Positions 10,579 to 34,339 are shown, counted from the whole stretch's first letter. The stretch is 63,929 bases of DNA, filler included, from 9 parts of 9 records of this genome joined end to end with filler, not necessarily neighbours in it; one strand, 5' to 3'. Made by a program: numbers and translations. The notes: generated from the sequence alone by a model not told the origin.

Positions 10579-10634
10579 ATTCATCCTCCACTTAGAAAAG
10601 TATCTTGATTTTGCAACTACTGTCGAATTTGTTT

Positions 10635-10650
10635 AGCAGAAATCGTGCCG
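10635..10650 (-). promoter_or_regulatory. Sigma-54 promoter of pspA
   Basis: Minus strand CGGCACGATTTCTGCT: GG-N10-GC (-24/-12), with divergent pspF. Confidence 0.8.
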
Positions 10651-10769
10651 GATCTCATTTTGTTCCGATTTCAAAAGGATTCAGCTATTTAGTAGATTGA
10701 CAAATCAACAAGTGATGGCGATAATAACCGACATGTTGCATTTTCAGCTTATTTATAGGATTTTTTACC

Positions 10770-11060: not shown

Positions 11061-11160
11061 NNNNNNNNNNNNNNNNNNNNNNNNNNNNNNNNNNNNNNNN
11101 NNNNTTAATTAATTAANNNNNNNNNNNNNNNNNNNNNNNNNNNNNNNNNNNNNNNNNNNN
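11061..11160. other. Artificial contig linker
   Basis: N-run with TTAATTAATTAA. Confidence 0.99.
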
Positions 11161-11694
11161 GTGGCTTAATTCATCTACTTCTTCTTTTACCTTGTCCCAC
11201 ACTTGCTCTTTATATTCCCAATCGAAACCTACACCCCGGGCTTTTTCCTGAACACGATTGGCTTTTACAAGGGCAGGCATTGCTGCAGGAACTCCTTCCA
11301 AAACGCGCTTATTTCCACCCTTTTCCTTAAGCTTTAATGCTTCCCAGTTTTCGGCAACTTTATCAGCCGAACCATCCACCTCAACATCTCCAAAAATATG
11401 AGGATGCCTGTATATAAGCTTTTCGTTAATTCCTTCCAGAACATCGCCAATATCAAAGGCCCGCTTTTCTGCACCTATTTTCGCGTAAAAAGCAATATGA
11501 AGCATTAAATCGCCCAACTCCTTTTTAATTTCCAGCAAATCGTTTTTCAAAATGGCATCGCCCAACTCGTAAGTCTCCTCAATGGTCAGCTTTCTTAACG
11601 ACTCCAGGGTTTGTTTTTTATCCCATGGACACTTCTCACGAAGTTCATCCATGATATCGAGCAAGCGTTTAAACTCTTCTACTTTTCTTTCCAT
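11161..11694 (-). CDS. mazG: Nucleoside triphosphate pyrophosphohydrolase MazG (3' truncated)
   Basis: LREKCPWDKKQT, EETYEL, KELGDL, KLIYRHPHIFG, GFDW. Confidence 0.95.
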
Positions 11695-11726
11695 GTATTG
11701 TTGACTTAAAAAAATTCTAATAAAAC

Positions 11727-11751
11727 TGAACCTTTTGCTTTTGGCGTGTAT
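11727..11751 (+). promoter_or_regulatory. Putative ECF-sigma promoter (copy 1)
   Basis: TGAACCTTTT-N7-GCGTGTAT upstream of the DUF3098-sigma operon; identical motif at 15993-16017. Confidence 0.7.
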
Positions 11752-11783
11752 ATAACCAATAACACAAACAAAAATGACGAATA

Positions 11784-11993
11784 ATGACGAAAGTATTTAG
11801 CCAAAGGAAATATTATTTATTGACTTTAAGCCTCATCTTATTAACATTGGGGTTTGGGTTAATGGCGGGTCCGATAAAGGTGGATGGTGAGTTTAACGAA
11901 ACAATTTTTAGTTTCAGAAGGATTACCTTTGCACCGGTTCTGGTATTAGGGGCCTATGTTTTACTGGTTTTTACTATTTTTAGCAAGAAGTGA
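11784..11993 (+). CDS. DUF3098-family small membrane protein
   Basis: GFGLMAG...FNETIFSFRRITFAPVLVLGAY. Confidence 0.8.
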   Translation: MTKVFSQRKYYLLTLSLILLTLGFGLMAGPIKVDGEFNETIFSFRRITFAPVLVLGAYVLLVFTIFSKK

Positions 11994-12565
11994 TTTTCAG
12001 GAAAAAAAATATTGCAAAACTAAGCAACGAAGACTTAATGCTTGCCATAACAAATGGTAACCAGCAGGCTTTTTCAGAATTATACGAACGTTTTAACGAG
12101 CGTCTGTTTTACTTTTTCTACAGAATGCTTGGTGGCGACCGGGAACAGGCAAACGATTTCCTTCAGGATATTTTTTTGAAAATTATACATAAACCTGAGT
12201 TGTTTAAACCGGAACATAAATTTTCGAGCTGGATTTTTTCGGTTGCACACAACATGTGTAAAAACGAATACCGAAAGCGTGATGTTCGAAAAGTGATCCA
12301 AAATGAAGAGAATCCGGATTTGATTTGTAATGAAGTTGCAGATGAATGCTCAGAAGAAAGAGAAAATTTAATAACTGAAGTTTTTAATGAACTTGAGACT
12401 TTGGAAGAAAGCCAACGTTCTATTTTGATATTAAAGTACAAAGAGAATTTCAGTTTAAAAGAAATATCGGAGATCCTCGACTTACCAGTGGGCACCATTA
12501 AATCGAGATTACACTACGCCCGTGTTGAATTATCGAAACGTATAGCAAAAAAAGAATTATTGTAA
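11990..12565 (+). CDS. ECF RNA polymerase sigma factor
   Basis: AFSELYERF, DFLQDIFLKI, FSSWIFSVAHN, EISEILDLPVGTIKSRLHYAR. Confidence 0.95.
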   Translation: MIFRKKNIAKLSNEDLMLAITNGNQQAFSELYERFNERLFYFFYRMLGGDREQANDFLQDIFLKIIHKPELFKPEHKFSSWIFSVAHNMCKNEYRKRDVRKVIQNEENPDLICNEVADECSEERENLITEVFNELETLEESQRSILILKYKENFSLKEISEILDLPVGTIKSRLHYARVELSKRIAKKELL

Positions 12566-12575
12566 AGATGAAGTC

Positions 12576-13148
12576 ATGAAAGAAGATTTAATTAACGATA
12601 AAGATTTAAACCGTTTATTTGAGCAAGACGCAGCAGGGATTTCTCCTGATCCTGGTGTTCGGGAACGATTGGATTATACATTTATGCTAAAAAGCAGCAA
12701 CTCTAAAGTAAACCAAAATTCATTTATTGGAATGTTTGGCTGGCTTTTCTCCTGGACGCATATGCCAGTAAAAATGGCTATCGTTTCTATTGTATTGTTC
12801 GTTTCATTTCTAAAAATACCTTCTGTTGAAACTCAGTTCTTTCTCCCGGGACAAGACACTACTTTTAACGCTATACCTTTACAAATGGACTCTTCAGAAA
12901 CTTCGCCATTTTTTGCGGATACCTGTTTTACCTCTAAAGCAATACATCAGAAAACCAGTTATTTTCAAAACCAAAAGAAAGGTTTAAATCAACCCGGTTT
13001 AGCTTTTAACTTTTTATCAACGAATTATAGTACCTCGCAAATTCATTTTCGAGGTTCTTCATTTTTTCTTCGTTCAGGAAATTGGAAGAAACACGAATCA
13101 GTTGATTTAAAAACATCAGTTCCCTCTGAATCTCATCTTTTAGTGTAA
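12576..13148 (+). CDS. Putative single-TM anti-sigma factor
   Basis: Directly follows the ECF gene; one TM (MAIVSIVLFVSFL); 3' end overlaps the DUF2723 gene by 143 nt. Confidence 0.6.
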   Translation: MKEDLINDKDLNRLFEQDAAGISPDPGVRERLDYTFMLKSSNSKVNQNSFIGMFGWLFSWTHMPVKMAIVSIVLFVSFLKIPSVETQFFLPGQDTTFNAIPLQMDSSETSPFFADTCFTSKAIHQKTSYFQNQKKGLNQPGLAFNFLSTNYSTSQIHFRGSSFFLRSGNWKKHESVDLKTSVPSESHLLV

Positions 13149-15978
13149 GTTGTTGCTTTTTATTCAGCATTTGATAAAAATACAACGATTCAGTAATGTT
13201 CTTTTCCAATCCTTCAAACCAAAGTTCAGCCTCTTCTTTCATTCCGGCTTTAAACATCGTTTCTGCCTGACGGATGCAATAAATATCGTGAGGTATTTTT
13301 GAGACCGGAAACCGCTCTACGCATAAGTTTAATAAGGCTTTTGCCTTTTCACTTTTTCCATCATTCAGTAATAAACCCGCTACTTCGGTGTATACATTTC
13401 GAGCCTGGAAAACATTAAAATTTGTAATGGTATTCCAACACACATAAACTCCCATATCTGAGATATTTCCCCAATTATATTCCTGCGTAAGTTTTTCATA
13501 AAGTTCTTCTGCATTACATTTTCCCAATGAAAAACCATTGGTATTGCTTTGTTCTGGAATCAAACGGTATACAAATCCTTCGCATTCCAGGTAGCTGCCT
13601 AAACCATGTTTTTGCGCTTCATACTTTGAAGAAAAACAAACCGGTCGCTCGCCAATGTTTGAACTAATGATATCCCAGAAAACCAGTTGGTGTTTATACA
13701 GTATCTTATCATCCAGATTTATTGGAACAGAGCCTGATTTATTGTTTACTTTAACCTGTAAAAAGACTTTGTCGACAGGTAAGAAATTTACTTTTTCTCC
13801 GGAGTTCAACCTTACTTTTGCGCTATCATCGTTCAGTTGCAAAAACTTAAGCACTTCGCTCCACGAAGATTTACGTTTTAATTTATTAAGTACTGGAATG
13901 TAATCCAGCTGGCCGTAGTCATATTTAAGTTGAGGGATGGTCATTTTTAAGCCGGAATCATTGTATTTGGGCTGGCGCAATCCATCAATAAACCAGTTTG
14001 CCGAGAGAAAAGGCATTACTACAACCCGAACATCGGTGCGAATTCCTTCCACTTCCTGGCAATAAAGCAATGGGTAGGTGTCGTTATCGGCACTGGTAAA
14101 AAGAATAGCATTTTCTGGACATGATTTTAAAATATTTACGGCAAAATCGCGGGCTGCATATTTTCCTGAACGGTTATGGTCATCATAATTCTGAAAACCC
14201 ATTAATCCGGGAGCTGCCAAGAAGAATAGCACAAATACCGGGATTACCAACTTTCTGTTTTTGAGAAATTGATCAACAATGGCCAAAAAGCTATATCCAA
14301 TCCAAATAGAAAAAGCCATAAAAGCCCCCACAAATACATAGTCACGTTCGCGTGGTGTAATCGGAATCTCATTAATGTAAACAGTTAATCCAAGGCCCCC
14401 CATTATAAAAAGAGCCAACACAACAAAAAATAATTTGCGTTGCCTTTTATTTTGCAAAAAAGCACCAAAAAGCCCCAATAAAAGTGGAAGAAAAAAGTAA
14501 GTATTCCTTGCTTTGTTCAACCTCAACCATTCCGGCAAATCACCTTGCGCACCAAGCCGGGCTGTATCGATAAAATCAATTCCCGAAATCCAGTTCCCAT
14601 TTATTACATCTCCCCTTCCCTGGCGATCATTCTGGCGGCCAACAAAATTCCACATAAAATAACGCCCAAACATATACCCAAACTGATACTTTAAAAAGTA
14701 AGCAACATGATCGCTTAAACGCGGAACAACAAGAGTTTTTCGCTCGCCCTGTGCATTTTTAACAGAAACACGCTTGCCCTGAATATCAACCCAGCTGTTA
14801 TAGGCTTGAATGTGCCTTTCTTCGCGGCTGTACATACGCGGGAAAAAAGTGGTAGTTTTGGAATCAAACTCATACGAAGCAGGTAGCTGTGTTGTACGGT
14901 ATTTTCCCTCAATCACATCTTTGGTATATCTTTCGTTAACCTTCGTTATTGGCGAATTGTAATTCTGACCATGAAATAAAGGGCGTTTCGGATATTGTTC
15001 GCGATTCAGGTAATTTATAAGGGAATACATATTATTTGGGCCTCCAAAATTAATGGGAGGATTTGCTGAGGAACGGATTATATTTACTGAATAAACCGAA
15101 AAACCAATTAGTATCAGTAAGGTTGATAAAGCAGTGATTTCTGCCACACTTTTTCCATTTTTTCGGAAATAGAAGATCGCAAATCCAAACAAAGAAAGAA
15201 TTATAACAACCCCCAGAATAGCTCCGAAATGAACCTGTAAACTCAACTTATTCACACCTGCATAATCGAACCACGCCAGGGTTTTCATAACAATTGGGGT
15301 TAAAACATATAAAACACCCAAAAGCAGCACTAATCCAACCACAAAAAACAAGAACAGATTTTTAATGGAATAGCCATATTTTCGGAATCCCAATACCATT
15401 ACAACGGTAGGAAGAACCAACAAATTTAACAGGTGTACACCTAGTCCCAAACCGGTTATCAGGGCCAAAAAATAAATCCACTTTTCATTCCCTTTTTGCT
15501 CAAATTCTTCGTCCCATTTAAGTGCTGCCCAAAATGAAAGCACAAGAAAAAACATAGAAAGGGAATAAACTTCTCCTTCAACGGCCGAAAACCAAAACGA
15601 ATCGGAAACCGCAAAACTTAATGCGCCTAATAGTGCACTGCCAATAATCAGAAACTGATTTTCAGTTTCTTTTCGAATTAATTTTACAATTATATGAAAA
15701 AGGAAGAACACGGTTAATGCACTAAAAAAGCCCGACATAAAATTGACGGACCAGGCGACTTTTTCAGGATTTCCAAAAGATAAAAAGGAAAACAATCTTC
15801 CGAGCAACATAAACAATGGAGCGCCTGCCGGATGATTAACCTCAAGTTTTGCAGCAGAAAGGATAAATTCGCTGCAATCCCAAAAACTGGTTGTTGGCTC
15901 AAGTGTAAAAGTGTATAAACATAAAGAAACAATAAATACTATCAGACCTGATAATTTGGTTACTCTGTTGTTGCGCAT
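13006..15978 (-). CDS. DUF2723 / TMEM260-like GT-C membrane glycosyltransferase
   Basis: TLEPTTSFWDCSEFI, HPAGAPLF, FWFSAVEGEVY, GVHLLNLL, PRERDYVF, DNDTYPL. Confidence 0.9.
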   Translation of the reverse strand: MRNNRVTKLSGLIVFIVSLCLYTFTLEPTTSFWDCSEFILSAAKLEVNHPAGAPLFMLLGRLFSFLSFGNPEKVAWSVNFMSGFFSALTVFFLFHIIVKLIRKETENQFLIIGSALLGALSFAVSDSFWFSAVEGEVYSLSMFFLVLSFWAALKWDEEFEQKGNEKWIYFLALITGLGLGVHLLNLLVLPTVVMVLGFRKYGYSIKNLFLFFVVGLVLLLGVLYVLTPIVMKTLAWFDYAGVNKLSLQVHFGAILGVVIILSLFGFAIFYFRKNGKSVAEITALSTLLILIGFSVYSVNIIRSSANPPINFGGPNNMYSLINYLNREQYPKRPLFHGQNYNSPITKVNERYTKDVIEGKYRTTQLPASYEFDSKTTTFFPRMYSREERHIQAYNSWVDIQGKRVSVKNAQGERKTLVVPRLSDHVAYFLKYQFGYMFGRYFMWNFVGRQNDRQGRGDVINGNWISGIDFIDTARLGAQGDLPEWLRLNKARNTYFFLPLLLGLFGAFLQNKRQRKLFFVVLALFIMGGLGLTVYINEIPITPRERDYVFVGAFMAFSIWIGYSFLAIVDQFLKNRKLVIPVFVLFFLAAPGLMGFQNYDDHNRSGKYAARDFAVNILKSCPENAILFTSADNDTYPLLYCQEVEGIRTDVRVVVMPFLSANWFIDGLRQPKYNDSGLKMTIPQLKYDYGQLDYIPVLNKLKRKSSWSEVLKFLQLNDDSAKVRLNSGEKVNFLPVDKVFLQVKVNNKSGSVPINLDDKILYKHQLVFWDIISSNIGERPVCFSSKYEAQKHGLGSYLECEGFVYRLIPEQSNTNGFSLGKCNAEELYEKLTQEYNWGNISDMGVYVCWNTITNFNVFQARNVYTEVAGLLLNDGKSEKAKALLNLCVERFPVSKIPHDIYCIRQAETMFKAGMKEEAELWFEGLEKNITESLYFYQMLNKKQQLTLKDEIQRELMFLNQLIRVSSNFLNEEKMKNLENEFARYYNSLIKS

Positions 15979-15992
15979 ATTTTTTCGTTCTA

Positions 15993-16017
15993 ATACACGC
16001 GTATCTAAAAAGGTTCA
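15993..16017 (-). promoter_or_regulatory. Putative ECF-sigma promoter (copy 2)
   Basis: Minus strand TGAACCTTTT-N7-GCGTGTAT ending 14 nt before the DUF2723 ATG. Confidence 0.7.
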
Positions 16018-16375
16018 AACAACATATAATACAGTTTTTCTTATTGTAACTTAAACAATGTTGAAGCAAAATAGTACATTTAGCCACCCATTACATAATG
16101 GAGAATAAATATTAACTCAAAAAACTTTGTAAAATGATTTTAGGTGTATCTGAATGGCTAAGTGGTAAATTAGGTTGGAGTGTATTAACAATCCGAATTG
16201 CATTTGTTGTTGGGGTTTTAATTTTTGGTGTTGGATTAGGACTCTATCTTATTCTCTGGCTTGTTAAAATGTTTTCGAAATAGGGTACAACAAAAACTCT
16301 TTTATTTGAATTAATCCCCAATCTTATTTTCACTGTCAAAACCTTTAGACATTCGATAGTGGTGATTTATTTTCG

Positions 16376-16383
16376 TAAATTTG
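16376..16383 (+). promoter_or_regulatory. Bacteroidota -7 promoter element for phoH
   Basis: TAAATTTG matches TAnnTTTG, 25 nt before the TTG start. Confidence 0.55.
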
Positions 16384-16408
16384 CGCTGCTCATTTTTAAA
16401 TATTTGCA

Positions 16409-17395
16409 TTGGATAAACAAATTTTACTGGAAGGAATTGATCTCCTTGAATTTTTCGGAGTAAACAATTCAAAAATTGAACTAATAAAAAGGCTTTTCCC
16501 AAAGATTAAAATTACTGCGCGTGGTCATGCGCTCTTTATTCAGGGTGATCCCAATGAAATAAAAGCTTTTGAAAAGAAATTTTCGTTAATACTGGAGCAT
16601 TATTATCAATTCAACGTGCTAACTGAAGACATTATTCATGAATTAATGAATTCGGGTATTTCATCAATGGAAGAGAATAGCACCACCGATAAAGATATTA
16701 TCGTGTTTGGCAATAATGGGAAACCGGTTCGGGCACGAACTCCCAATCAGAAAAAGTTATATGAAAAAAGTGCCAAGAGCGATTTGATTTTTGCCATTGG
16801 CCCAGCTGGTACCGGAAAAACGTATACCGCCATTGCCCTGGCTGTAAAGGCCTTAAAAAATAAGGAAATTAAAAAAATTATTTTGAGCCGCCCGGCAGTT
16901 GAAGCTGGTGAAAACCTGGGTTTTCTACCTGGTGATTTAAAGGATAAAATAGATCCGTACCTACAGCCACTTTACGATGCTTTACAAGATATGATTCCGC
17001 CTAAAAAACTGGAAGAGTTTATGAAAGATGGAGTCATTCAAATTGCACCGCTGGCATTTATGCGAGGTCGAACCTTAAGCAACGCTTATGTTATTCTGGA
17101 TGAAGCCCAAAACACCACAATTAACCAACTTAAAATGTTCCTTACCCGAATGGGGTTAAATGCCAAATTTATTATTACCGGCGATGTAACACAGATCGAC
17201 CTTCCACGTAAAAGCAGTTCAGGTTTGGTGCAGGCATTAAAAATTTTAAAAGGAATAAAAAATATTTCCACCATAAAGTTCGACAAAAAGGACATTGTTC
17301 GTCATAAACTTGTTCGCGACATAGTTGACGCCTATGATAAACATTCGGAAGAAACCGAACAGAAAAAATTAAACGATAAGGAGAATCGTTCCTAA
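16409..17395 (+). CDS. phoH: PhoH-family ATPase
   Basis: GPAGTGKT, RPAVEAGENLGFLPGD, APLAFMRGRTL, DEAQN, GDVTQIDL. Confidence 0.95.
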   Translation: MDKQILLEGIDLLEFFGVNNSKIELIKRLFPKIKITARGHALFIQGDPNEIKAFEKKFSLILEHYYQFNVLTEDIIHELMNSGISSMEENSTTDKDIIVFGNNGKPVRARTPNQKKLYEKSAKSDLIFAIGPAGTGKTYTAIALAVKALKNKEIKKIILSRPAVEAGENLGFLPGDLKDKIDPYLQPLYDALQDMIPPKKLEEFMKDGVIQIAPLAFMRGRTLSNAYVILDEAQNTTINQLKMFLTRMGLNAKFIITGDVTQIDLPRKSSSGLVQALKILKGIKNISTIKFDKKDIVRHKLVRDIVDAYDKHSEETEQKKLNDKENRS

Positions 17396-21239: not shown

Positions 21240-21339
21240 NNNNNNNNNNNNNNNNNNNNNNNNNNNNNNNNNNNNNNNNNNNNTTAATTAATTAANNNNN
21301 NNNNNNNNNNNNNNNNNNNNNNNNNNNNNNNNNNNNNNN
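21240..21339. other. Artificial contig linker
   Basis: N-run with TTAATTAATTAA. Confidence 0.99.
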
Positions 21340-23911
21340 CCACGACAAAATCAATTTCTTCTACAATAGCTTTAGCCTGTTCCTCTGAATAGCAAGCATT
21401 AAGAACCACACCTCGAATATTATCCTTCAACACTTTGAATAAATCAGCAAGTGCTTCAGAGGACACAAGTTTTTCTTGATTCTGTGCATCGGAATGGAGC
21501 ACTATACCGATCGGACCTCCCCCATGTCCAGAAAAATGAACGATGGTTGGCTCCACTTCAAGTAGCGCCTGATGAAGATCCCCTGGACGAAGTGCCCATT
21601 TGCTTTCAAACTCAACTTTGTCGCGTAGTCTTGCTGAGCGTACTTTTTCTTCGATTGCTCGAACCTCCTCATCAATTGCCAACCTTGCAGACCCCACTGG
21701 ATTTGCAGCAAAAAATAAAATTTTCACCATATCTTTGCGCCTTCTTACAATCCGATTTTGAACTGTTGCCGCCTGCACTTCCACTCCTAAAGGGGGATTC
21801 GACCAAAATCTCTCCCATCCACTCAACAAATCTCTCGCATACCATGCAACAGCGTTAAGTTCGGTTTTCCACGACCACCTAAAACGTTTAGCTGCGAATT
21901 TCCATTTTCGATAAAGAAGCAGATGCCCAAATTTTTCGTCGTGCCCCTCCTTCCACGAAAACCCTTCAGCAATAAGCAAGTCAACGACCTCATTCTCAGA
22001 TACTTCTGGAAACATTGTTACAAACTCAATAACGTTCTCTATTGATCCTCCCACGAGAACACTTCGTGCATTGGCTAAAATTCTCTTAACAATCCCCCCA
22101 ACGGGTTTCGATAACTTCTCACCAGCCATAAAAGAATCCAGCCATTCTGTGGCTGCGGCAGAGAGCAAGGACTCTCTACATTCATCTTGCAATGCACTCA
22201 AAAGAGCTTTTTGTTTAGAGTAACTTAAAACAGCTTTAGCCGCACGGTTACCAACATAAGATAAAATATGTTGACACGCTTCGTCTCCCTCAATACAACC
22301 ATCAAACAAGTGATGTACAAAACTAACGTCACATTTTTGGGATGGAAGCCCCCCCCCCGCATTGATGTGTGATGAAAGTAAAAGAGTTGCCCCACAAGCA
22401 TAAAAATCAACGTTGGTAAGCAACTTGATATCAGCAGTTGTTCTATTTACAGCTTGCGCAATTAATGGTTGCCATTTACTATCGATTGCTGCATCAACAA
22501 TCTCTCCAGATTTTCTTTCTTGAAGAAGTATGTCCAATCCGAGTTCTGGCTCTGCCACCTTTTTTCGTAGCACCCTCACGGCCTCTGTTAACGATTCAAC
22601 GTTATATAGAATACCCGCAAGAAGTCTGGGCCATTGTTTCTTAGCACTCAGTTCTATCGTACAAGTGTTTAATTTGGTTGGCAAATGCTTAGGTAAATAT
22701 TTAAGGAGGGAAGCCTCGGTACTGATATCAGCAGTAAAAAAACTTTGAGTCCATTCCACAGCATCTACGTTCAAAGACCACCAGCGCCAAACTGCTGATG
22801 CCCAATCAGTGTTCATACTTTTAAAAGCTTCATACAAACCGTTCCGAATCGCTCTCTGCCACCAAGCAGCATGATCGTTCGAAGCTTGATGCTCAAGTAT
22901 CCACAATGCATTTTCATCTAATTCGTTTTGAAGATTCTTCTGAATCCACCGAGCTGTAGCGAGTTCCAAATCCTTCAAAGCCTTTCCAGCGATAGAGAAT
23001 TTGGTTAGAGAAGCTCCCCGGATGTCTATAATCGTAAAATCACGCGTTGCGGATATTTCATTTATCAATAAATTAAGATCTTCAGACGGCAGAACAAAGC
23101 TTTCATCGAATGCCTCTATAGATCTGACAGCCACAAGGATATCGGAAAAGCTACCACGCCCTTCCCGGATAATTCTAAAAGTAGAAGCGATACGTTCTAT
23201 ACGTTTGAGAACAGTAAAGTCTCCTGGAAGTCGTTTCCAGTTTACGCAAAGCAGCCTCTCCAATTCAGGTACAGTTTTGCCTGAAAAATATGAGACTCCA
23301 TCTGTAATAGGCCATGGATTCTTACGATCTATCACTACTTGAGATTGCCAACGCGGCTTTAATTCTCTTGGAATGATAATTATATCGGGAACAAATCCAT
23401 TTTCCAGCGTTTCATTCCCAAAATACGTTCTAAGAGAAAATTTTTTTCGTGCAGCTGGCCAAAGCTTGGGCCAGAGAGAAAGAAGGAGTTTGGGTGCTAT
23501 TGAAATATCTGGCACAATCACAGGCCTAATGCCATTAACAAGAAGATCGACAACTAAGCCTGTCGGAGACTCACCACTTTCTAAAATTTCAAACGGAAAT
23601 AACTGAAGGATATTTTGGAAATTTTCAATGGAATCAATAGTCTCTATGGGGGTTAATAGAACATGAGTTTTGACCATATTTTTACGGGGAGCCTTATGAT
23701 CCTCTTCCCCACACCAAATAGCCCACCAGTTCCGCAGTTTTCCACAGCCCCAATAAGGAGTCCAAACGACCTCAGTGCCAATATGACCTGCCGGGCGATC
23801 AACCAAGAATCGAAGCTCTTCGAGCATAGATTCCTCTCCGATTAGACTAGTTTCAAGAAGTTGGTGACTACCAGCCCGATTTCCAAAAGTGGCACGTTCA
23901 AAAGATATCAT
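21340..23911 (-). CDS. GAP1-N1-type GTPase-associated protein fused to a C-terminal CHAT (caspase-like) protease (3' truncated)
   Basis: Start MISFERATFGNRAGSHQLLETSL with GAGG RBS; APRKNMVKTHVLL and LWPKLWPAARKKFSLRT; C-terminal KILFFAANP...HFSGHG...VVLNACYS with His/Cys dyad. Confidence 0.8.
22349..22358 (-). repeat. G10 homopolymer inside the GAP1-CHAT gene
   Basis: C10 on the + strand; codons GCG GGG GGG GGG (AGGG). Confidence 0.9.
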
Positions 23912-23915
23912 GGCT

Positions 23916-24764
23916 TCAAACCTCAAGCAACCATGCGACAGGAGCGGTAAGATCTTTTTTTTGATCTGTTGAACCCGGAGGGATAACGTATCCAAAATTC
24001 TCAGGGCCTCGCCTTGCGAACTCATCATCACGAGAATCCGCTTCTAAAGCTCGCCCCAACGATGAAAGAGCCCAAACAGACCAAGAATTCTCAGCCCATA
24101 CACTTCGAATAAAAGCATATAACAAAGGCAAACGCTTCTGGAAAACCTGTTCAGGAGTTCCTTCCTCATTAAGTTCATCCCAACACGAAAGAAGCACCGC
24201 AAGTCGAGGTCGTGAAATCTGCTCGAAAGTCGATTTGCCAGCAATAAAGAGTAACATTTGCAACAGCTCTACATATTGAGCTCTATCATCCCAACCAGAG
24301 CCTTCGGTTTTACATCCATTCGTATTAGTACGTTCCAGAGGTAGGCCTGTCGGTCGACTAAAAAGATCCTCATACAATTTAAGAGTCGAAGGACGAATAA
24401 CAAGCAACCATGCACGAGCTGCCGATATTGACTTTCGCCACTCTGAGGGAAGAACACGCCTTTCAACAATAGAGGAAAGACGTTCTCCAGCATAATCTGG
24501 CCACTCTAAAATTACATTCTCCCCGCTACGCGTCTCGAGTTCACACTTCATGCCTACCCACGTACTCGCTGATGTATGACCTGCAGTTCGACCTTCCTCA
24601 AGACATCCAAGGACTTCTTCAAATTTAGTGAGGTTATCAGTTCCCCCGGGCTTAAGCCTCAAAGCGCCTTGCCGATTATATCTTAGACGTCCTATCAATT
24701 GACCTGCATAGTGTGTCTTTCCAGCTGCAGGCCCACCAAGAACAAGGATATCACTTGCAGCCAT
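23916..24764 (-). CDS. TRAFAC-clade GTPase (second of a double-GTPase pair)
   Basis: G1 GGPAAGKT, G2 GHT, G3 DYAGE, variant G4 SCWD, G5-like SSLG; start MAASDIL at 24764. Confidence 0.85.
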   Translation of the reverse strand: MAASDILVLGGPAAGKTHYAGQLIGRLRYNRQGALRLKPGGTDNLTKFEEVLGCLEEGRTAGHTSASTWVGMKCELETRSGENVILEWPDYAGERLSSIVERRVLPSEWRKSISAARAWLLVIRPSTLKLYEDLFSRPTGLPLERTNTNGCKTEGSGWDDRAQYVELLQMLLFIAGKSTFEQISRPRLAVLLSCWDELNEEGTPEQVFQKRLPLLYAFIRSVWAENSWSVWALSSLGRALEADSRDDEFARRGPENFGYVIPPGSTDQKKDLTAPVAWLLEV

Positions 24765-25695
24765 AAGCCCCCCTGAATGCCCAAAAAGGTTCATTTTTCA
24801 CGAGAGGTTCGCAGAACCTCTCTTTACCTTGCTGTTTTTCACCAAGATCGATTGCTAAAGAAAACATTTTAATAATGGTATCAGGCTGCTCAATAGTTGT
24901 CTTCCATACTTCACTATAGGGAACAAACTGTAATCTGGACTGCTCAAGTGTTTCTCGATGTTCCGGGAGCAATTTAATATCTGCTTTGGTCCACGTAAAA
25001 CCAAGAGGGACATGTGATGCGACGGCACCCACTCGTTCTATCAAATTCCTTGTATTCCTACGAGCTTGAGGTAAAGTCTCATCATCCGACAGCGCAGCCT
25101 GATCTGCAAGCAACAACAATACATCTGATTTTTTAATGACCCAACGCGCACCATCAACGCTTTTATCGTTAGGTGATTTCGCCCACTGGGTAAACCATTC
25201 TCCTGGCGAATCTGCAAATAGAATATCTCGAAAAAAGCCCTTCTTGTTTCGCAAAGACAAATGGAGTAACCCTGGTACTCTTCCACTACTTGATGTATGA
25301 GGTGGAAACGACGGAGGCAGATCTCCAGACCATCTGCAACGCTGGACTATAGATTCCCATCCACCAAGAGTCCAAGAGCCACAGAAACTCCACTCAAAAA
25401 TCTCTCCATATTCAAGAAGCCACATGTACAAAAATGCTAGAAGCGAAGTTTTCCCTGATCCGGGAGCCCCCATTAGCCCCACAACAATTGGCCGACCTCT
25501 ACCCGCCAAAATAGAGAGATCTTTGGTACCCAAAGAATAGCTGTTCCAAGGGATATCACTCATGTCAGAATGAACTTCTATTTCAGAAGTCTTTTCTTTC
25601 TCAACAACCCAGTGCTCGCATTTCGTTCGGTCAACATGTCCCAGTGCACAAGTTGTATCTGAATAGCACCCCTTCTGCTTACAATGCCCTGTCAT
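24751..25695 (-). CDS. TRAFAC-clade GTPase (first of pair) with N-terminal Cys/His motif
   Basis: G1 GAPGSGKT, G2 PPHT, G3 DSPGE, G4 TKAD; N-terminal C-x4-C-x5-C-x2-GH-x5-C-x-HW. Confidence 0.85.
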   Translation of the reverse strand: MTGHCKQKGCYSDTTCALGHVDRTKCEHWVVEKEKTSEIEVHSDMSDIPWNSYSLGTKDLSILAGRGRPIVVGLMGAPGSGKTSLLAFLYMWLLEYGEIFEWSFCGSWTLGGWESIVQRCRWSGDLPPSFPPHTSSSGRVPGLLHLSLRNKKGFFRDILFADSPGEWFTQWAKSPNDKSVDGARWVIKKSDVLLLLADQAALSDDETLPQARRNTRNLIERVGAVASHVPLGFTWTKADIKLLPEHRETLEQSRLQFVPYSEVWKTTIEQPDTIIKMFSLAIDLGEKQQGKERFCEPLVKNEPFWAFRGAYGCK

Positions 25696-27001
25696 TTGAT
25701 CCCCTTATAAGCCTTTGAGCTTGCAAATCACGAAAAATCCACATAGCAAAGTCAGGTAATGAGAGTTCCATATTCGGATTAAGCCCTGCTCTCTCCTGCA
25801 CTTTTTCAGAACTAATTGAGACCTCACTAATGGCTTCCGCGATCAATCCCAATAGAGGTTGACGCATGCTGTTGTTCAACGCTTTAGGGACGGCCACTTG
25901 TGAAGCAAGATCGTTCTCATAAAGCTCGTCCAAATATTTCGTTATGAGCTGTGGTGTCGGTGTTTTATCTTTCGAAAAGAGTGCAGCAACTGTTTCACCA
26001 AGAACGTAAGTAACGCTTGCAGGTGCAAGGGGAGGAACTATTTTGGTTAAATCGACCGCCATGGCCAAAGCAGCGGTTGGCGCAGGTAGATTCCGATATC
26101 CGATCTTGAGGGCTGGAGAATACTTGGCTTTAGACCACCATAGAACATCCAATCGCATTCGAGCAAATTGTTGAGATTTAAACATCTCAGAGCGAATCAT
26201 CTCAATAGACTCAAAGTGATCTGCCATTTTTTCTTCTAAAATACCCATAGATTGCTGAAGATCTGCAAAAAACTTTTCTGAAACACGATTCATCCCAAGA
26301 TTGACCGCCTTCACCATAGCCGCAGTCATTCGTGGGGCAAATTCATATGCCCATTCAGTATGTGCATTGGGCCAATGCGGATTTGGGTCTTCGGGAGAGT
26401 TTCCGTCTCGATTATTCGGTCCGGCAGAACCAACGACATCCATAATAAGTTCACCGTCTTCGATTTCGGAGTCTGATTCCAAATTAAATAAATTTTCAAG
26501 ATCAATCTGTTTACTCTTCAGTTTTTTAGCATCTGACGGTACAAGACTTGTACAGGCTGCCGCCTCATTTTCTGCAGCCCCCCCGAACCCCTGTACAAGT
26601 TTATTTATAAGGTCTCCTTCCTTCCCAAACTTAGCTTGACCATGATTTAGCGGACTAATGGCGGTTTGATAGATGGCAGATGCTTTTTCTGGACTTCCCT
26701 CCGTCACCAAGACAAGGGCATTAATAATGATCGCTCGAAGGAGTTCACGAGGCCGATTTACATGCGTATTACGCATCGTTTTCCATTGTTCGATCACCAA
26801 ATCCTCAACCACATCAAAAAAAGGTTCGGTTTCTCCAATATCACTGTCGATCGAGACCAATGTCGCAGGAATTATAAGGTCCGGTTCACTCTCAAATCTG
26901 TCGACCAAAGCTGCACTTGCTGTTTCCATCTTAGAGAATCGGGCATCATCTGATCCAATATCCATAAGACCGAGGTTGAGTAGTTCTTGTAGAATTCTCA
27001 T
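25679..27001 (-). CDS. GASH (GTPase-associated system all-helical) protein
   Basis: GGGAGG RBS; LQELLNLGLMDIGSDDARF, WKTMRNTH..RPRELLRAII, RLDVLWW, WIFRDLQA; first gene of the GTPase operon. Confidence 0.75.
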   Translation of the reverse strand: MRILQELLNLGLMDIGSDDARFSKMETASAALVDRFESEPDLIIPATLVSIDSDIGETEPFFDVVEDLVIEQWKTMRNTHVNRPRELLRAIIINALVLVTEGSPEKASAIYQTAISPLNHGQAKFGKEGDLINKLVQGFGGAAENEAAACTSLVPSDAKKLKSKQIDLENLFNLESDSEIEDGELIMDVVGSAGPNNRDGNSPEDPNPHWPNAHTEWAYEFAPRMTAAMVKAVNLGMNRVSEKFFADLQQSMGILEEKMADHFESIEMIRSEMFKSQQFARMRLDVLWWSKAKYSPALKIGYRNLPAPTAALAMAVDLTKIVPPLAPASVTYVLGETVAALFSKDKTPTPQLITKYLDELYENDLASQVAVPKALNNSMRQPLLGLIAEAISEVSISSEKVQERAGLNPNMELSLPDFAMWIFRDLQAQRLIRGSNDRAL

Positions 27002-27073
27002 TGTAATAGCCCTCCCAAATCAATACAGGCTGTATTCTTTATCGAAATTTTAAGTAAGATTCATTTTTTTGCA

Positions 27074-27173
27074 NNNNNNNNNNNNNNNNNNNNNNNNNNN
27101 NNNNNNNNNNNNNNNNNTTAATTAATTAANNNNNNNNNNNNNNNNNNNNNNNNNNNNNNNNNNNNNNNNNNNN
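27074..27173. other. Artificial contig linker
   Basis: N-run with TTAATTAATTAA. Confidence 0.99.
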
Positions 27174-27624: not shown

Positions 27625-28461
27625 CTAACCTTCAGTCAAAATCTCCATTTGTTCAGGATGTGACACTTCGATCATCGGCCCGTTCCATTTTTTGATCCAA
27701 CCGCGAATGCGGGTTCTTTTTCCCTCCAAATCCATTGGATCCAAACCTGCCGAAAGAAACATCGGCAGATCCCGGGTGCGCACAACAACGGTGAAATCGG
27801 TCCGCCAGTCGGCCGTGAAATTCAGATAGATTCGGCTGCGCACCCGTGCCGCCCCGAACACCCTGCCTTCAACGACCTGAAATGTCCCTGTGTCGTCGAC
27901 TGCCAAGTCCGTGTTTCGAATGGCGTAAAAGGAATCGGACCAGATACCCGCAAGGAGGGATCGGGCTTTGCGTTCGAGGGCGTACATTTCCGCCGCCAGT
28001 TTGCGGTTGTCGGCAAATGTATAAACGCGTGCCATGCCGATGCTTAGCAGGCGGCCCTGGACCCACCCTCCGTCATCCCGGAACAGATGTGCCAAAACCC
28101 GGCGGTGGCGGTCGATTCTGCGCCCCCCATAGCGCAGTTCGACCCGTTTTCCTAGGATCAGCTTTTCCAGTTCGCTTTTAGCCTCGCCGGCGAGAGGCCA
28201 GGCTTTGAAGCCCTCCCGGCCCAACGGCAATTTCGGCGCCTGAATACCGACCAGACGTACCTGACGACCGTCGTCCAGGACCACCGTATCGCCGTCGACA
28301 ACCCCGGAAACCAGGGCTGTCCCGCCGGGGGCCAAGGCATCCCGGGGTTCGCCGGCGACACCGGCCGCAAACGCCACCGCGGTCAGCGCCAGTACGAAAA
28401 CCCATGCAATTACCCGCACCCGGAAAGCAAGGCGGTTCTCAACCGGTTGGAACAAAAGCAC
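27625..28461 (-). CDS. Thermonuclease (SNase) family protein with C-terminal OB-like domain
   Basis: VVDGDTV, VRLVGIQAP, DRHRRVLAH, GMARVY, GIW; start uncertain. Confidence 0.9.
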   Translation of the reverse strand: MLLFQPVENRLAFRVRVIAWVFVLALTAVAFAAGVAGEPRDALAPGGTALVSGVVDGDTVVLDDGRQVRLVGIQAPKLPLGREGFKAWPLAGEAKSELEKLILGKRVELRYGGRRIDRHRRVLAHLFRDDGGWVQGRLLSIGMARVYTFADNRKLAAEMYALERKARSLLAGIWSDSFYAIRNTDLAVDDTGTFQVVEGRVFGAARVRSRIYLNFTADWRTDFTVVVRTRDLPMFLSAGLDPMDLEGKRTRIRGWIKKWNGPMIEVSHPEQMEILTEG

Positions 28462-28503: not shown

Positions 28504-30468
28504 TCATTTCTCCTTCATGATGATGGTGACACCCGTTTCACCCGCCGCCAACCGGCGGGCATGCAGGGCGGTTAGCTTATCATCCGGGCATTTTTGCGAT
28601 AGGGCTTCGAGCGAAATCGTCGCGCTTGCTTCGCCGGCGGCCATTTCGTCAAAAGCCGCGTCGTAGGCGTCAAGGTCAACAGTTTCTTCAAGCGCCGGAT
28701 AGACCGGCTCGTAGACATCGATACCGGCCTGTTTGCCTTTGAGAACCAGGGCGCCGACCGGCCGGAACCGAACATCATCGCCGCATCGGTCCGCCGTCGC
28801 CGCCGAAACACAGATCAGCGTACCCAGATGTTTGTTGACGCTTTCCAACCGGGCCGCCGTGTTTATGGCGTCGCCATGGGCCGTATAGTCGAAAAACACA
28901 TCGCCGCCGAAGTTGCCGACGACCACTTCGCCCGTGTTGACGCCAATCCGAGTGACGCCGAACTCGAAACCCTTCAGGCGCTGCTCTTCGACGAAATCGC
29001 GGGCGAACCCATCCATGGCAAGCGCGCATTTAACGGCGCGCACCGGATGATCCGATTGATCGACCGGCGCATTGAACATCACATGCAATGCATCGCCGAC
29101 GATCTTATCGATGGTGCCGCCATGTTCGAACGCGATCTGGCACATACCATCCAGATAGGCATTGAGAAACGGCAGAACGACCGCCGGCTCCGCCTTTTCG
29201 ATCATCGAGGTAAACCCGGCCAGGTCGGTGAACAGGCAAGTAACCTCACGGCGCTCGCCATTTACTTTCAGGCGTGTCGGGTTGGCCAACAGCTGATCGA
29301 CGACCTGCGGCGACGTGAAACGGGAAAACGCGTCGCGGATGAATTTCTTGCGCTCCCTCTCCCTGCGTCCGAAATAGGCGCTGGCCGTACCGATGCCTAC
29401 CCCCCCGGCAACGCTGGGCGCGACCAGTGGCAACAGGATGCCTCCGTCGGCGTAAAGGGCAAAGCCGCCAATCCACAAGGCGGCAAGCACCGCCACGCTG
29501 CCTATTGCCTTTAACCAATTCCCTACATCCGCCACCGCCAGGAAACATCCGATCGCAGCCACCAAAAGGACGATGCCGGCCTGCCGGAAAAAACCGACCT
29601 TAGCCGCCACCGGTGTGTCCAGTAACTGGGCCAGGGAATGGGCATGGATGAAAAGGCCTGAGAGTATCCCGCCATCGCTTGGGCCCGCCGCCATCGACGT
29701 ACGGTGCCGGTCGCCGTGCGGAAGTTCGGCACCAATCAGTACTATCTTTTCGTGGAACCACGCCTTCGGCAGGTGCCTGAACACATGGGCTGGAAACACC
29801 CGGAAAGGTGGCCCGCCGTCACCGGTTTGCGGCCGCAGTACAAGCTCCACGGCGGAAGTGGGGCCGACCACCCCCAACTCCTTTGCGATCGCCGCGGCAA
29901 ATCCGGGAATGCCCCCCGACGACGTATCTTTTCCCGGATACACCCAGCGGACCACCCCGTCGGCCCCGTCCTTCAGCAGATTGACGCCCCCTTTCGATTG
30001 GGAACCGACAAAATCCCGCAGGAATTCGGTTTGACGTTGGGTCAGCCCTTCGTCGCCATCGGCCCAGGCCAGCACGAGCGGGACCGACAGATTTGCCAAT
30101 GCCGTGCGCAGGACGGCGTCTTTGGCCGGTTCGGTCGGCTGATCGAAAAGGATATCCAGGCCGATAGCCTTTGGCCCGGCCGCATCGATCGTCGTGATGA
30201 TCTCGGCCAGAAATGACCGATCGATCGGCGAACGGTAGGCAAGCCCGGCCAGCGTGTCTTCGGTGATGGCGACGATCACGATATCCGGGTGTGCCGGTTG
30301 CGGCGGCGTCAACGTCGCTATCCGCAAATCATAGACCCAGTTTTCCGCCGCTCGCAGAAACGGGATCGACCCAAACACGGTCATCGCGACGACAGTGGCA
30401 GCCACCGCAATCGCTAGAATTACCGGGAAGGTCTGTCGGTATGCGGCGGATATCATCGGCCCATTCAC
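28504..30468 (-). CDS. CHASE2-domain class III adenylate cyclase
   Basis: CHASE2 (IVIVAITEDTL..RSPIDR, GLDILFDQP), three TMs, FTDLAGFT, IDKIVGDA, GDAINTAARLE; start at GTG 30468 or ATG 30456. Confidence 0.9.
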   Translation of the reverse strand: MNGPMISAAYRQTFPVILAIAVAATVVAMTVFGSIPFLRAAENWVYDLRIATLTPPQPAHPDIVIVAITEDTLAGLAYRSPIDRSFLAEIITTIDAAGPKAIGLDILFDQPTEPAKDAVLRTALANLSVPLVLAWADGDEGLTQRQTEFLRDFVGSQSKGGVNLLKDGADGVVRWVYPGKDTSSGGIPGFAAAIAKELGVVGPTSAVELVLRPQTGDGGPPFRVFPAHVFRHLPKAWFHEKIVLIGAELPHGDRHRTSMAAGPSDGGILSGLFIHAHSLAQLLDTPVAAKVGFFRQAGIVLLVAAIGCFLAVADVGNWLKAIGSVAVLAALWIGGFALYADGGILLPLVAPSVAGGVGIGTASAYFGRRERERKKFIRDAFSRFTSPQVVDQLLANPTRLKVNGERREVTCLFTDLAGFTSMIEKAEPAVVLPFLNAYLDGMCQIAFEHGGTIDKIVGDALHVMFNAPVDQSDHPVRAVKCALAMDGFARDFVEEQRLKGFEFGVTRIGVNTGEVVVGNFGGDVFFDYTAHGDAINTAARLESVNKHLGTLICVSAATADRCGDDVRFRPVGALVLKGKQAGIDVYEPVYPALEETVDLDAYDAAFDEMAAGEASATISLEALSQKCPDDKLTALHARRLAAGETGVTIIMKEK

Positions 30469-30523
30469 GCCCCCTTGCCGCGGCCCTGTCCGGACGCGAA
30501 TCCCATGGCCGGTGTTCAGGCGA

Positions 30524-30628
30524 TTATCTGTGCTCGCCCTTGTCGGCGTCCAGTTCCATCCACATGGCATTGAGGATGGCCAGTGCGACGATGAAACCCA
30601 GACCCAGAACCCAAGCGAAATACCACAT
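30524..30628 (-). CDS. cydX: Cytochrome bd oxidase small subunit CydX (missing from ORF track)
   Basis: MWYFAWVLGLGFIVALAILNAMWMELDADKGEHR, 34 aa, GAGGAGG RBS, directly after cydB. Confidence 0.93.
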   Translation of the reverse strand: MWYFAWVLGLGFIVALAILNAMWMELDADKGEHR

Positions 30629-34239: not shown

Positions 34240-34339
34240 NNNNNNNNNNNNNNNNNNNNNNNNNNNNNNNNNNNNNNNNNNNNTTAATTAATTAANNNNN
34301 NNNNNNNNNNNNNNNNNNNNNNNNNNNNNNNNNNNNNNN
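34240..34339. other. Artificial contig linker
   Basis: N-run with TTAATTAATTAA. Confidence 0.99.

Follow-up and report, generated by a model that had tools for sequence, protein, structure and literature searches.

A GAP1-N1-type double-GTPase operon with a caspase-like CHAT protease domain fused to GAP1

What kind of system is encoded by a compact operon in which two divergent P-loop GTPases stand between a helical protein and a large multidomain protein, and what might it do for the cell? The operon was found in a window of 63,929 nt (the whole stretch of DNA analysed), which consists of nine unrelated contigs with N-linkers between them and with GC contents from 0.32 to 0.60. The contig of interest, 21340-27073 (5,734 bp, GC 0.437), contains solely four genes and a 72-nt leader. 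Because the window was joined from unrelated contigs, its flanks give no native context for the operon.

The reading frames confirmed the four co-oriented genes of the preliminary description, all on the minus strand (Table 1), with a 17-nt overlap between GASH and DO-GTPase2, a 14-nt overlap between DO-GTPase2 and DO-GTPase1, and a 4-nt gap between DO-GTPase1 and GAP1. A Shine-Dalgarno-like GGGAGGG was located in the leader at 27016..27010, 8 nt before the GASH ATG, and no promoter was assignable, with 7 promoter-like sites in the contig versus 8.5 +/- 2.6 in shuffles. The GAP1 gene starts with the ATG at 23911, 4 nt past the DO-GTPase1 TGA, and its frame is open to 21341. The span first assigned to the operon, 21340..27001, does hold the four genes, but position 21340 is the first base past the linker and not a gene end. 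Gene 4 (GAP1-CHAT) is incomplete because the contig ends at this linker; a second, identical linker lies at 27074-27173. The four frames are otherwise open and without frameshifts. Truncation by the contig end and the lack of native flanks preclude a judgement of the integrity and context of the window copy.

Table 1. Features of the operon contig and of the linker that ends it
Feature	Coordinates	Strand	Remarks
GASH (GTPase-associated system helical protein)	25679..27001	-	Pfam PF19994, E 3.2e-65
DO-GTPase2	24751..25695	-	Pfam PF19993, E 4.2e-49; 314 aa
DO-GTPase1	23916..24764	-	Pfam PF19975, E 5.2e-71; 282 aa
GAP1-N1 scaffold fused to CHAT protease	21341..23911	-	Pfam GAP1-N1 and CHAT; 857 codons present
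GAP1-N1 domain, residues 4-105	23597..23902	-	Pfam PF20012, E 7.8e-19
GAP1 helical body, residues 204-691	21839..23302	-	Confidently modelled
Disordered linker, GAP1 residues 705-728	21728-21799	-	Precedes CHAT
CHAT caspase-like protease domain, residues 729-857, truncated	21341..21727	-	Pfam PF12770
Assembly linker	21240..21339	.	44 N + TTAATTAATTAA + 44 N; ends contig
Leader upstream of GASH	27002..27073	-	72 nt, reaching contig end

The Pfam search matched every family that had been suggested for this locus (GASH, DO-GTPase2, GAP1-N1, and CHAT) and also DO-GTPase1, and the domain assignments, with E-values of 4e-7 to 5e-71, are not due to chance. Kaur et al. 2020 (eLife, PMC7159879) describe GAP1-N1-containing systems composed of GASH, two DO-GTPases, one of them with an N-terminal zinc ribbon, and GAP1, in which effectors can be direct GAP1 fusions, caspase-superfamily peptidases included. 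By this description, the operon is a GAP1-N1-type double-GTPase (DO-GTPase) system in which GAP1 carries a fused peptidase effector, and the published gene set and order bear out the previously suggested match to the double-GTPase systems of the Aravind group. The system class is thus known from computational prediction, and the locus is another copy of it, with a caspase-like effector. The operon has its two DO-GTPase paralogues, both assigned to the TRAFAC clade and each with the conserved Walker B Glu. The effector is coupled by fusion of CHAT, while relatives showed PNP fusions, EAD1 pairs, and a phosphoesterase-GAAD gene. Identity to the nearest database relatives was 62% for GAP1-CHAT, 66% for GTPase2, and 78% for GTPase1 (the last among the matches listed). 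Full-text literature searches found only Kaur et al. 2020 and passing mentions, and no experimental study of any class member, in agreement with the earlier statement that no mechanism was known from experiment. The comparison with PADLOC that had been proposed as a check gave no defence-model match for the core proteins: in PADLOC-DB v2.0.0, GASH and GTPase1 had 0 matches, GTPase2 had only a P-loop-length match to PifA (E 0.0023), and GAP1 matched only CHAT models. No NCBIfam model was matched by any core protein.

The sequences of the two GTPases were analyzed next to those of their homologues. The motifs quoted in the preliminary description were recovered in both genes, namely the P-loop GAPGSGKT (residues 76-83, 25447-25470), Walker B DSPGE, and G4 TKAD in DO-GTPase2, and the P-loop GGPAAGKT (residues 10-17, 24714-24737), Walker B DYAGE, and G4-like SCWD in DO-GTPase1. 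DO-GTPase2 aligned to positions 1-197 of 226 of its Pfam profile, and C5, C10, C16, C26, G76, G81, K82, T83, D162, G165, E166, K237, and D239 were invariant in 38 aligned homologues. The first four of these residues form a zinc-ribbon-like four-Cys motif at the N-terminus, where the Pfam search gave no zinc-ribbon match at E<=0.1; at the level of the motif, DO-GTPase2 is the one GTPase of the pair that carries a putative N-terminal zinc ribbon. DO-GTPase1 spanned its whole profile (positions 1-271 of 271). An alternative upstream ATG at 24794 would give a protein of 292 aa, but the start at 24764 is favoured because homologue lengths cluster at 282 aa (nearly all 281-283 aa and mostly 282 among the matches listed). 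DO-GTPase1 had 328 homologues at E<=1e-3, with 59-78% identity among the 120 matches listed, and G10, G11, G15, K16, Y91, G93, E94, C194, W195, D196, and E197 were invariant in 37 sequences. Both GTPases had an invariant Lys in Walker A and an invariant Glu in Walker B (38 DO-GTPase2 and 37 DO-GTPase1 sequences). Judged by conserved residues, both GTPases, together with CHAT, are predicted to be catalytically competent.

The GTPase1-GTPase2 complex was also predicted. The score was 0.86 in the best run, which was also the median of three, versus 0.01 for the best-scoring of 3 controls; at least 79% of the contacts were common to the runs, and partner pLDDT was at least 78. Among solved complexes in the calibration set, 51 of 78 attained this mark, as did 2 of 108 mismatched pairs. 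Since neither DO-GTPase1 nor DO-GTPase2 has a solved structural relative, the score is unlikely to reflect a structure already seen by the predictor. The complex prediction supports a GTPase1-GTPase2 heterodimer. The predicted interface excludes both P-loops, so that a coupling of dimerisation to nucleotide state does not follow from the modelled complex.

GASH is a protein of 440 aa that covered PF19994 in full (profile positions 1-398 of 398) and had 655 representative relatives at E<=1e-3. Its AlphaFold2 model (pLDDT 92.6, pTM 0.81) was all-alpha, one helix being 76 residues long (residues 217-292), and no solved structural relative was found. The model of GAP1-CHAT (pLDDT 83.3) showed a GAP1-N1 domain of the order strand-strand-helix-strand-strand-strand, a further alpha/beta domain, and a long helical body. 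RFLVDRPxG, PYWG, and R76-N78-M79-V80 were invariant in the GAP1-N1 domain of 20 sequences. At E<=1, the Pfam models of GAP1-M (PF20014) and GAP1-C (PF20052), domains expected to come after GAP1-N, were without a match in the 20 members of the subfamily that were searched, and the clusters nearest to residues 1-260 by language-model features carry GAP1-N2 and GAP1-M (scores 0.89-0.90).

The CHAT effector had appeared in the preliminary description only among the proposed checks and not in its title. PF12770 matched residues 745-843 (E 4.3e-7), and both residues of the dyad, His796 (21524-21526) and Cys840 (21392-21394), were retained; H796 in FSGHG and C840 in LNAC were invariant in 20 sequences. 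They aligned with the motifs of SAVED-CHAT (8tl0) that hold H375 and C422, named as catalytic in bioRxiv 10.1101/2023.06.23.546230; the 20-residue numbering offset applied here is our inference. The GAP1-CHAT protein had 55 homologues, and its full-length relatives are 916-931 aa long, so that the protease domain of the window copy, which ends at residue 857, is missing about 70 C-terminal residues. This shortfall is an assembly limit and is not shown to be biological. Identity to the relatives L001-L003 was 67-68% for CHAT, 58-63% for GTPase1, 50-54% for GTPase2, 42-45% for GASH, and 37-38% for the GAP1 body, and GAP1 residues 1-705 were the fastest-evolving part of the system.

The explanation that we consider best, and reasonably probable, is a GAP1-N1-type DO-GTPase conflict system whose effector is the CHAT cysteine protease on the GAP1 C-terminus. 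Gene order and effectors were examined in relatives. Each of the 6 loci examined in genomes had the order GASH-GTPase2-GTPase1-GAP1. Among 52 metagenome loci, 30 had it, and 49 agreed with it as far as they were visible. Among 25 complete metagenome GAP1 proteins, the C-terminal domain was CHAT in 6, PNP in 4, and EAD1 in 11, and none was found by Pfam in 4. Separate effector genes in relatives encoded PNP-EAD1, TIR-EAD1, SLATT, and phosphoesterase-GAAD proteins. The core is conserved and the effector is swappable between loci (CHAT, PNP, EAD1, phosphoesterase, TIR, SLATT).

The gene neighbourhood of the relatives is mobile and the system is patchily distributed. Among 401 genomes sampled from one phylum, DO-GTPase1 exceeded the Pfam cut-off in 4. 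The system of G048 directly follows Tn7-like TnsA, TnsB, TniB, and TniQ genes as their first cargo; transposase, resolvase, or integrase genes lie near the systems of G135, L115, L121, L123, L129, L138, and L145; and after that of L001 come genes for a zeta-toxin-like protein and an IS200 transposase. These observations, the rarity included, would also fit an addiction, exclusion, or inter-element competition device that serves its mobile element instead of host defence against phages, with the protease killing or arresting cells that lose the element or gain a rival. We regard this as unlikely. Defence systems are also typical cargo of such elements, so the mobile context does not separate the two readings. 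L003 and L102 lie in a chromosomal housekeeping setting where no mobile-element gene is visible, and no antitoxin-like small partner gene was conserved beside the operon in the loci examined.

Neighbours were also compared with PADLOC models (match at E<=1e-10). Matches were found at 9 of the 30 metagenome loci with flanking ORFs, a raw count with no matched background control: Druantia DruH and DruE (L110), a type III restriction enzyme and PDC-S05 (L115), a type IIG restriction-modification enzyme and an HKD-Snf2 protein (L117), Tmn (L129), SoFic (L128), MzaE/AbiU and a methylase (L138), PD-Lambda-3_A (L099), mad8 (L108), and PDC-M20B and PD-T4-6 (L127). Near-duplicate loci from different samples were L121/L122 and L118/L126. 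Two further matches were doubtful, a true UvrA at L131 and a weak PbeA match at L141. A recognised defence neighbour was absent in 21 of the 30 loci, and also in the CHAT-type loci L102, L002, and L003.

It is quite improbable that the GTPase pair and its regulator steer site-specific proteolysis in stress, development, or the envelope, outside any conflict, in the manner of small-GTPase modules like MglA/MglB. The high conservation of the GTPases would suit such a cellular switch, as would the lack of a defence-model match for the core proteins and the housekeeping genes that flank L102 and L003 and, on one side each, L099 and L001. However, the distribution is patchy, the neighbours are commonly mobile-element or defence genes, and a single cellular substrate is hard to reconcile with an effector that changes between close relatives from protease to nucleoside phosphorylase, TIR, SLATT, or phosphoesterase. 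That the window copy is a decayed, inactive remnant whose CHAT C-terminus was truly lost is highly improbable: the frame is unreadable from 21341 and the protein is short of its relatives, but the break falls exactly at the artificial N-linker, the frames are otherwise intact, GASH and GTPase1 cover their Pfam profiles end to end (GTPase2 in the part given above), and the catalytic residues are retained.

For the conflict system with a CHAT effector, the following course of events may be proposed. The overlapping genes and the conserved order suggest that the four genes would be translationally coupled and their products joined in one complex. DO-GTPase2, with its putative zinc ribbon, and DO-GTPase1 would form a heterodimeric nucleotide switch, as modelled; the docking site of this dimer would be the conserved alpha/beta module at the N-terminus of GAP1. 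Evolutionary rate points to the fast-evolving helical body of GAP1 and to GASH as the surfaces that may meet an invader cue or keep the system off. A change of GTP state might then reorganise or oligomerise GAP1 and render the flexibly tethered CHAT domain active, by analogy with oligomerised SAVED-CHAT. The protease would cleave cellular or invader proteins, and growth would stop before the invader could spread. The patchy distribution, mobile cargo, swapped effectors, and defence neighbours support the predicted GTP-gated anti-invader or cell-death role.

A more speculative and rather unlikely proposal concerns GAP1 itself. Its conserved N-terminal part, some 250 residues long, might correspond in bacteria to the DENN module of eukaryotes. 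The likeness would lie in the strand-strand-helix-strand-strand-strand domain with its longin-like topology, followed by a second alpha/beta domain and then by helices. If so, GAP1 would act on the DO-GTPase heterodimer as a platform for nucleotide exchange or GTPase regulation, the whole system would be a Rab-GEF-like switch licensing a tethered caspase-like protease, and GASH would be the invader-facing or inhibitory subunit.

The operon was finally compared with known systems. It shares with those of Kaur et al. 2020 (PMC7159879) the four components, their order, the GAP1-fused caspase-superfamily effector, and the Walker B Glu in both GTPases, and no architectural difference from the GAP1-N1 systems was apparent from the description in that paper, where the DO-GTPases are proposed as a switch that sets a threshold and links invader sensing to the effector. 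According to bioRxiv 10.1101/2023.06.23.546230, SAVED-CHAT (PDB 8TL0) is a protease that belongs to a hybrid of CBASS and type III-B CRISPR; its SAVED sensor is filament-forming and takes cA3 as ligand, and a further protease, PCaspase, serves as the substrate. In contrast, the upstream module of our operon consists of the GTPase pair, GAP1, and GASH, with no substrate gene visible, and the CHAT domains are only 26-30% identical. No Pfam match to a SAVED domain was found in the operon, and an identity as SAVED-CHAT was rejected: the PADLOC SAVED_CHAT match (E 5e-5) was confined to the CHAT part (profile positions 305-413 of 498). In one relative, L107, a Peptidase_C14 gene lies directly downstream, and, as part of the more speculative proposal above, CHAT may in such relatives start a two-protease cascade via Peptidase_C14, like that from SAVED-CHAT to PCaspase. 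The gate of TPR-CHAT / Csx29 of Craspase (type III-E CRISPR) is the RNA-guided gRAMP/Cas7-11, whereas GTPases take this place in the present operon, and the helical parts are without specific similarity. STAND/Avs NTPases and dynamin-like and GIMAP-type immune GTPases are NTPase-switched immune effectors. The likeness to them is one of principle, in that a P-loop NTPase would set the threshold and tie the detection of an invader to an effector that kills or inhibits. The DO-GTPases, in comparison, form a separate TRAFAC family without a solved relative, and the two paralogues of a pair are accompanied by a scaffold of their own (GAP1) and by GASH as helical partner.

The window contained eight identical linkers (44 N, TTAATTAATTAA, 44 N), which divide it into nine blocks. 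The contigs were 5.0-10.4 kb in size and their GC content ranged from 0.32 to 0.60; therefore, they probably come from different organisms, and gene-neighbourhood findings that span linker positions are unsafe. The operon takes up one entire block, nearly all of which is covered by its four minus-strand frames. The adjoining blocks (GC 0.364 and 0.596) carry ordinary housekeeping genes and are not genomic neighbours of the operon. One of these unrelated contigs has a CHASE2-adenylate/guanylate cyclase gene next to cytochrome bd oxidase genes and a staphylococcal-nuclease-like gene, all of them ordinary and without connection with the operon. A single-protein scan for a longer copy of the operon contig yielded no relative in genome contigs or metagenome contigs.

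Coordinates of the operon genes and of features in related loci (L numbers, loci with relatives; G numbers, genomes)
Sequence	Feature	Coordinates	Strand	Remarks
Window	Gene 1, GASH	27001..25679	-	440 aa
Window	Gene 2, DO-GTPase2	25695..24751	-	314 aa; 17-nt overlap with GASH
Window	Gene 3, DO-GTPase1	24764..23916	-	282 aa; 14-nt overlap with DO-GTPase2
Window	Gene 4, GAP1-CHAT	23911..21341	-	857 codons; start 4 nt past DO-GTPase1 stop; runs into linker
Window	Operon block	21340-27073		5,734 bp; GC 0.437
Window	Linkers	5634-5733, 11061-11160, 21240-21339, 27074-27173, 34240-34339, 39355-39454, 48232-48331, 58684-58783		
Window	CHASE2-cyclase gene	28504-30570	-	
Window	Staphylococcal-nuclease-like gene	27625-28461	-	
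L002	GAP1-CHAT	9998-12753		Two overlapping frames (580 aa, 506 aa)
L107	GAP1-CHAT	4632-7424		
L107	Peptidase_C14 (caspase) gene	7452-9281	+	609 aa
L117	PNP-EAD1 gene	6376-7722		
L121	PNP-EAD1 gene	633-1970		
L123	PNP-EAD1 gene	6407-7723		
L129	PNP-EAD1 gene	1875-3173		
L110	Druantia type III DruH and DruE	2-6871	+	
L108	mad8-matching protein	1741-7695	+	1,984 aa
L095 (G042)	Double UvrA-like ABC ATPase	7658-13465	-	1,935 aa
L097, L098 (G048)	Tn7-like genes and GAP1-N1 system	12825-17213 (L097), 408-3955 (L098)		

The preliminary description had placed four co-oriented genes, with two overlaps and a 4-nt gap, at 21340..27001. The reading frames bore out this gene set and arrangement, and every quoted GTPase motif (GGPAAGKT, DYAGE and SCWD in DO-GTPase1; GAPGSGKT, DSPGE and TKAD in DO-GTPase2) was found; the one thing to correct is the left coordinate, which marks the end of the contig and not of a gene. 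Judged by its sequence, the predicted four-gene unit is translationally coupled and order-conserved. DO-GTPase1 has a possible alternative start at the ATG at 24794, but among the matches listed nearly all homologues are 281-283 aa long, mostly 282. The sequence GGGAGGG is located 8 nt upstream of the GASH ATG. The contig held 7 promoter-like sites in comparison with 8.5 +/- 2.6 in shuffles, and 7 terminator-like sites in comparison with 5.0 +/- 2.4, with no excess of either.

The families named in the preliminary description (GASH, DO-GTPase, GAP1-N1 and CHAT) were all matched by Pfam. GASH (E 3.2e-65) and DO-GTPase1 (E 5.2e-71) matched the whole profile, DO-GTPase2 was matched with E 4.2e-49, and GAP1 matched GAP1-N1 at residues 4-105 (E 7.8e-19) and CHAT at its C-terminus, residues 745-843 (E 4.3e-7). 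NCBIfam gave zero matches for all four proteins. PADLOC recognised only the CHAT part of GAP1 ('chat', E 6.6e-14); beyond that, its models matched neither GASH nor the GTPases nor GAP1. In an alignment of 38 DO-GTPase2 homologues, C5, C10, C16, C26, the P-loop, DxPGE and K237/D239 were invariant, as were the P-loop, YAGE and CWDE in 37 DO-GTPase1 homologues and H796 (FSGHG) and C840 (LNAC) in 20 GAP1-CHAT homologues. The full-length relatives of GAP1-CHAT are 916-931 aa, so the copy in the window is short by about 70 residues.

Full-length GAP1-CHAT relatives in species-representative genomes were found at only three loci, L001 (an Ectothiorhodospiraceae bin), L002 (a Pirellulales bin) and L003 (a Marinobacter bin), which have the identical four-gene order in unrelated surroundings. 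The remaining 76 loci kept, mostly cyanobacterial, have the CHAT domain alone in common. The GAP1-CHAT gene of L002 is read as two overlapping frames, a frameshift that may be real but probably stems from a sequencing error, the bin being derived from long reads. In a matched comparison with these three loci, identity was 67-68% for CHAT, 58-63% for DO-GTPase1, 50-54% for DO-GTPase2, 42-45% for GASH and 37-38% for the GAP1 body; the low values of the last two indicate that the scaffold and GASH are the diversifying parts.

When 401 genomes from the phylum to which G001 belongs were scanned, the DO-GTPase1 family exceeded the cut-off in 4. Three of these were new, with differing effectors: the core is preceded by a calcineurin-like phosphoesterase-GAAD gene in G135 and G042, and followed by a PNP-EAD1 gene in G048. 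Scanning metagenomes with the GTPase1 alignment yielded 52 loci. As called with local HMMs and a simple greedy ORF caller, the complete set of four genes stands in the canonical order in 30 of them, and in 49 what can be seen of the locus agrees with that order. The seemingly odd orders of L101, L108 and L149 were dismissed as ORF-caller artefacts or local frameshifts, a GTPase1 tblastn match being present in each. Among 25 complete metagenome GAP1 proteins, the C-terminus carried EAD1 in 11, CHAT in 6 and PNP in 4, and had no Pfam domain in 4; separate PNP-EAD1, TIR-EAD1 and SLATT genes lie beside many of the loci. The data showed that the effector position is exchangeable and that the distribution is accessory and mobile. 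In many GAP1-N1 systems, PNP-EAD1 genes just upstream of GASH, examples of which are tabulated, match the PADLOC candidate model PDC-M60C (about 1e-40). Since the core matches no PADLOC model, this effector module is common to another candidate system. In L107, a caspase gene (Pfam E 7.7e-11) directly follows GAP1-CHAT on the same strand, which by analogy suggests a two-protease cascade as in SAVED-CHAT with PCaspase; no Peptidase_C14 gene follows GAP1-CHAT in L099, L001 or L003.

Structure models were obtained for GAP1 and GASH. In the GAP1 model (pLDDT 83.3), the N-terminal domain is built as strand-strand-helix-strand-strand-strand and is followed by a second alpha/beta domain; residues 204-691 form a helical body predicted with confidence, residues 705-728 are a disordered linker, and the truncated CHAT domain comes last. 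GASH was all-alpha with one 76-residue helix (pLDDT 92.6, pTM 0.81), and no structural relative above background was found in PDB, viral models or Atlas. The prediction of a GTPase1-GTPase2 complex scored 0.86, in both the best run and the median of three runs, whereas the highest-scoring of three controls reached 0.01; contact agreement was at least 79% and partner pLDDT at least 78. In calibration, 51 of 78 solved complexes attained this mark, as did 2 of 108 mismatched pairs. Neither GTPase has a solved structural relative, and therefore the score is unlikely to reflect memorised structures. The modelling thus supports a heterodimer of the two GTPases, and its predicted interface excludes both P-loops. 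We also considered the N-terminal ~250 residues of GAP1 as a bacterial counterpart of the eukaryotic DENN module. A wide VIA search and Pfam gave no confirmation, and Kaur, Burroughs, Iyer and Aravind (eLife 2020; PMC7159879) use none of the words longin, roadblock and DENN in their main text; we regard this reading as improbable.

The account we favour, at somewhat better than even chances, is a GTPase-switched conflict system with a CHAT output. The GTPase dimer would be seated on GAP1, at its conserved N-terminal module, and GASH together with the GAP1 body would sense an invader or restrain the system. The CHAT domains may be activated when GTP brings about a rearrangement or oligomerisation, comparable to filament formation in SAVED-CHAT, and proteolysis would lead to cell arrest. 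The rest of the probability is shared by three alternatives.

According to one alternative, the operon is a device that serves its own mobile element. Integrase, transposase or resolvase genes are present at L115, L121, L123, L129, L138 and L145, and in G048 the GAP1-N1 system is the first cargo directly after Tn7-like TnsA, TnsB, TniB and TniQ genes. Further along, G048 also has genes for a MobA/MobL relaxase, a serine recombinase, a WYL regulator and another TniQ. A defence-island association, which would favour the conflict reading, had also been raised, and 117 flanking ORFs of 30 metagenome loci were surveyed (duplicates L100 and L142 dropped; 20 loci without a flanking ORF of at least 100 aa). 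A strong PADLOC match (E<=1e-10) on a neighbour was present at 9 of the 30 loci, a count without a matched control and with some near-duplicate loci: L110 (Druantia DruH, DruE), L115 (type III restriction enzyme, PDC-S05), L117 (type IIG restriction-modification enzyme, HKD-Snf2 protein), L129 (Tmn), L128 (SoFic), L138 (MzaE/AbiU, methylase), L099 (PD-Lambda-3_A, adjoining a STAND-TPR protein), L108 (mad8) and L127 (PDC-M20B, PD-T4-6). The other 21 loci, including the CHAT-type L102, had no recognised defence neighbour, and the matches at L131 and L141 were doubtful. The association is thus suggestive, not proven, although it bears out the link to defence islands asked for in the preliminary description better than would be expected by chance. 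The second alternative is a cellular regulatory switch. The third, a decayed copy in the window, meets a truncated GAP1 on one side and, on the other, two GTPases with intact nucleotide motifs and a tethered putative protease with an intact dyad.

Several large proteins were seen in these surroundings. In the CHAT-type loci L110 and L108, the operon lies immediately downstream, on the same strand, of Druantia type III DruH and DruE (giant protein of 2,097 aa, PADLOC E 0) and of a protein with a C-terminal match to MADS mad8 (E 4.6e-45), respectively. In G042, a double UvrA-like ABC ATPase (PADLOC mad3, E 5.6e-160) adjoins the GAP1-N1 system and belongs to a series of large genes that gave no Pfam match. 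The mad3/mad8 labels on UvrA-domain proteins, this one and that of L131, are doubtful; the L131 protein resembles true UvrA and is matched by the same model.

Double-GTPase/GAP1 systems are widespread predicted prokaryotic conflict systems, known computationally since 2020 and represented by Pfam models, for which our searches brought up neither an experiment nor a structure nor an entry in a defence catalogue. A full-text literature search, most subscription journals lying outside it, gave no experiments on them, in line with the preliminary description, which knew of no experimental mechanism; beyond Kaur et al., the texts covered held passing mentions of DO-GTPases in two papers (one a 2026 preprint) and an unrelated listing of PF19975. 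The window copy is one more member, divergent, truncated and without context, which adds little alone and is not the copy to clone. The family as such is a sound candidate for experiment, and full-length relatives with complete operons are L001, L003, L099 and L110. The comparison also gave the GTPase heterodimer model, a ranking of the fastest-evolving parts (GAP1 body, GASH) and an association, measured without controls, with defence genes and mobile elements. Of all the forms, the CHAT-fused one lends itself best to study: its output is proteolysis by a His-Cys dyad, which can readily be assayed and abolished. It would reveal how bacteria use GTPases to gate a caspase-like protease, which is also a theme of eukaryotic immune signalling.

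The operon is, with near certainty, a member of the GAP1-N1-type double-GTPase family. Kaur et al. (2020) describe the GAP1-N1 subtype of 'GTPase-centric' systems as composed of GASH, two DO-GTPases, one with an N-terminal zinc ribbon, and GAP1, which is exactly the arrangement of the operon; in their account effectors, caspase-superfamily peptidases included, can be fused directly to GAP1, as the CHAT domain is here.
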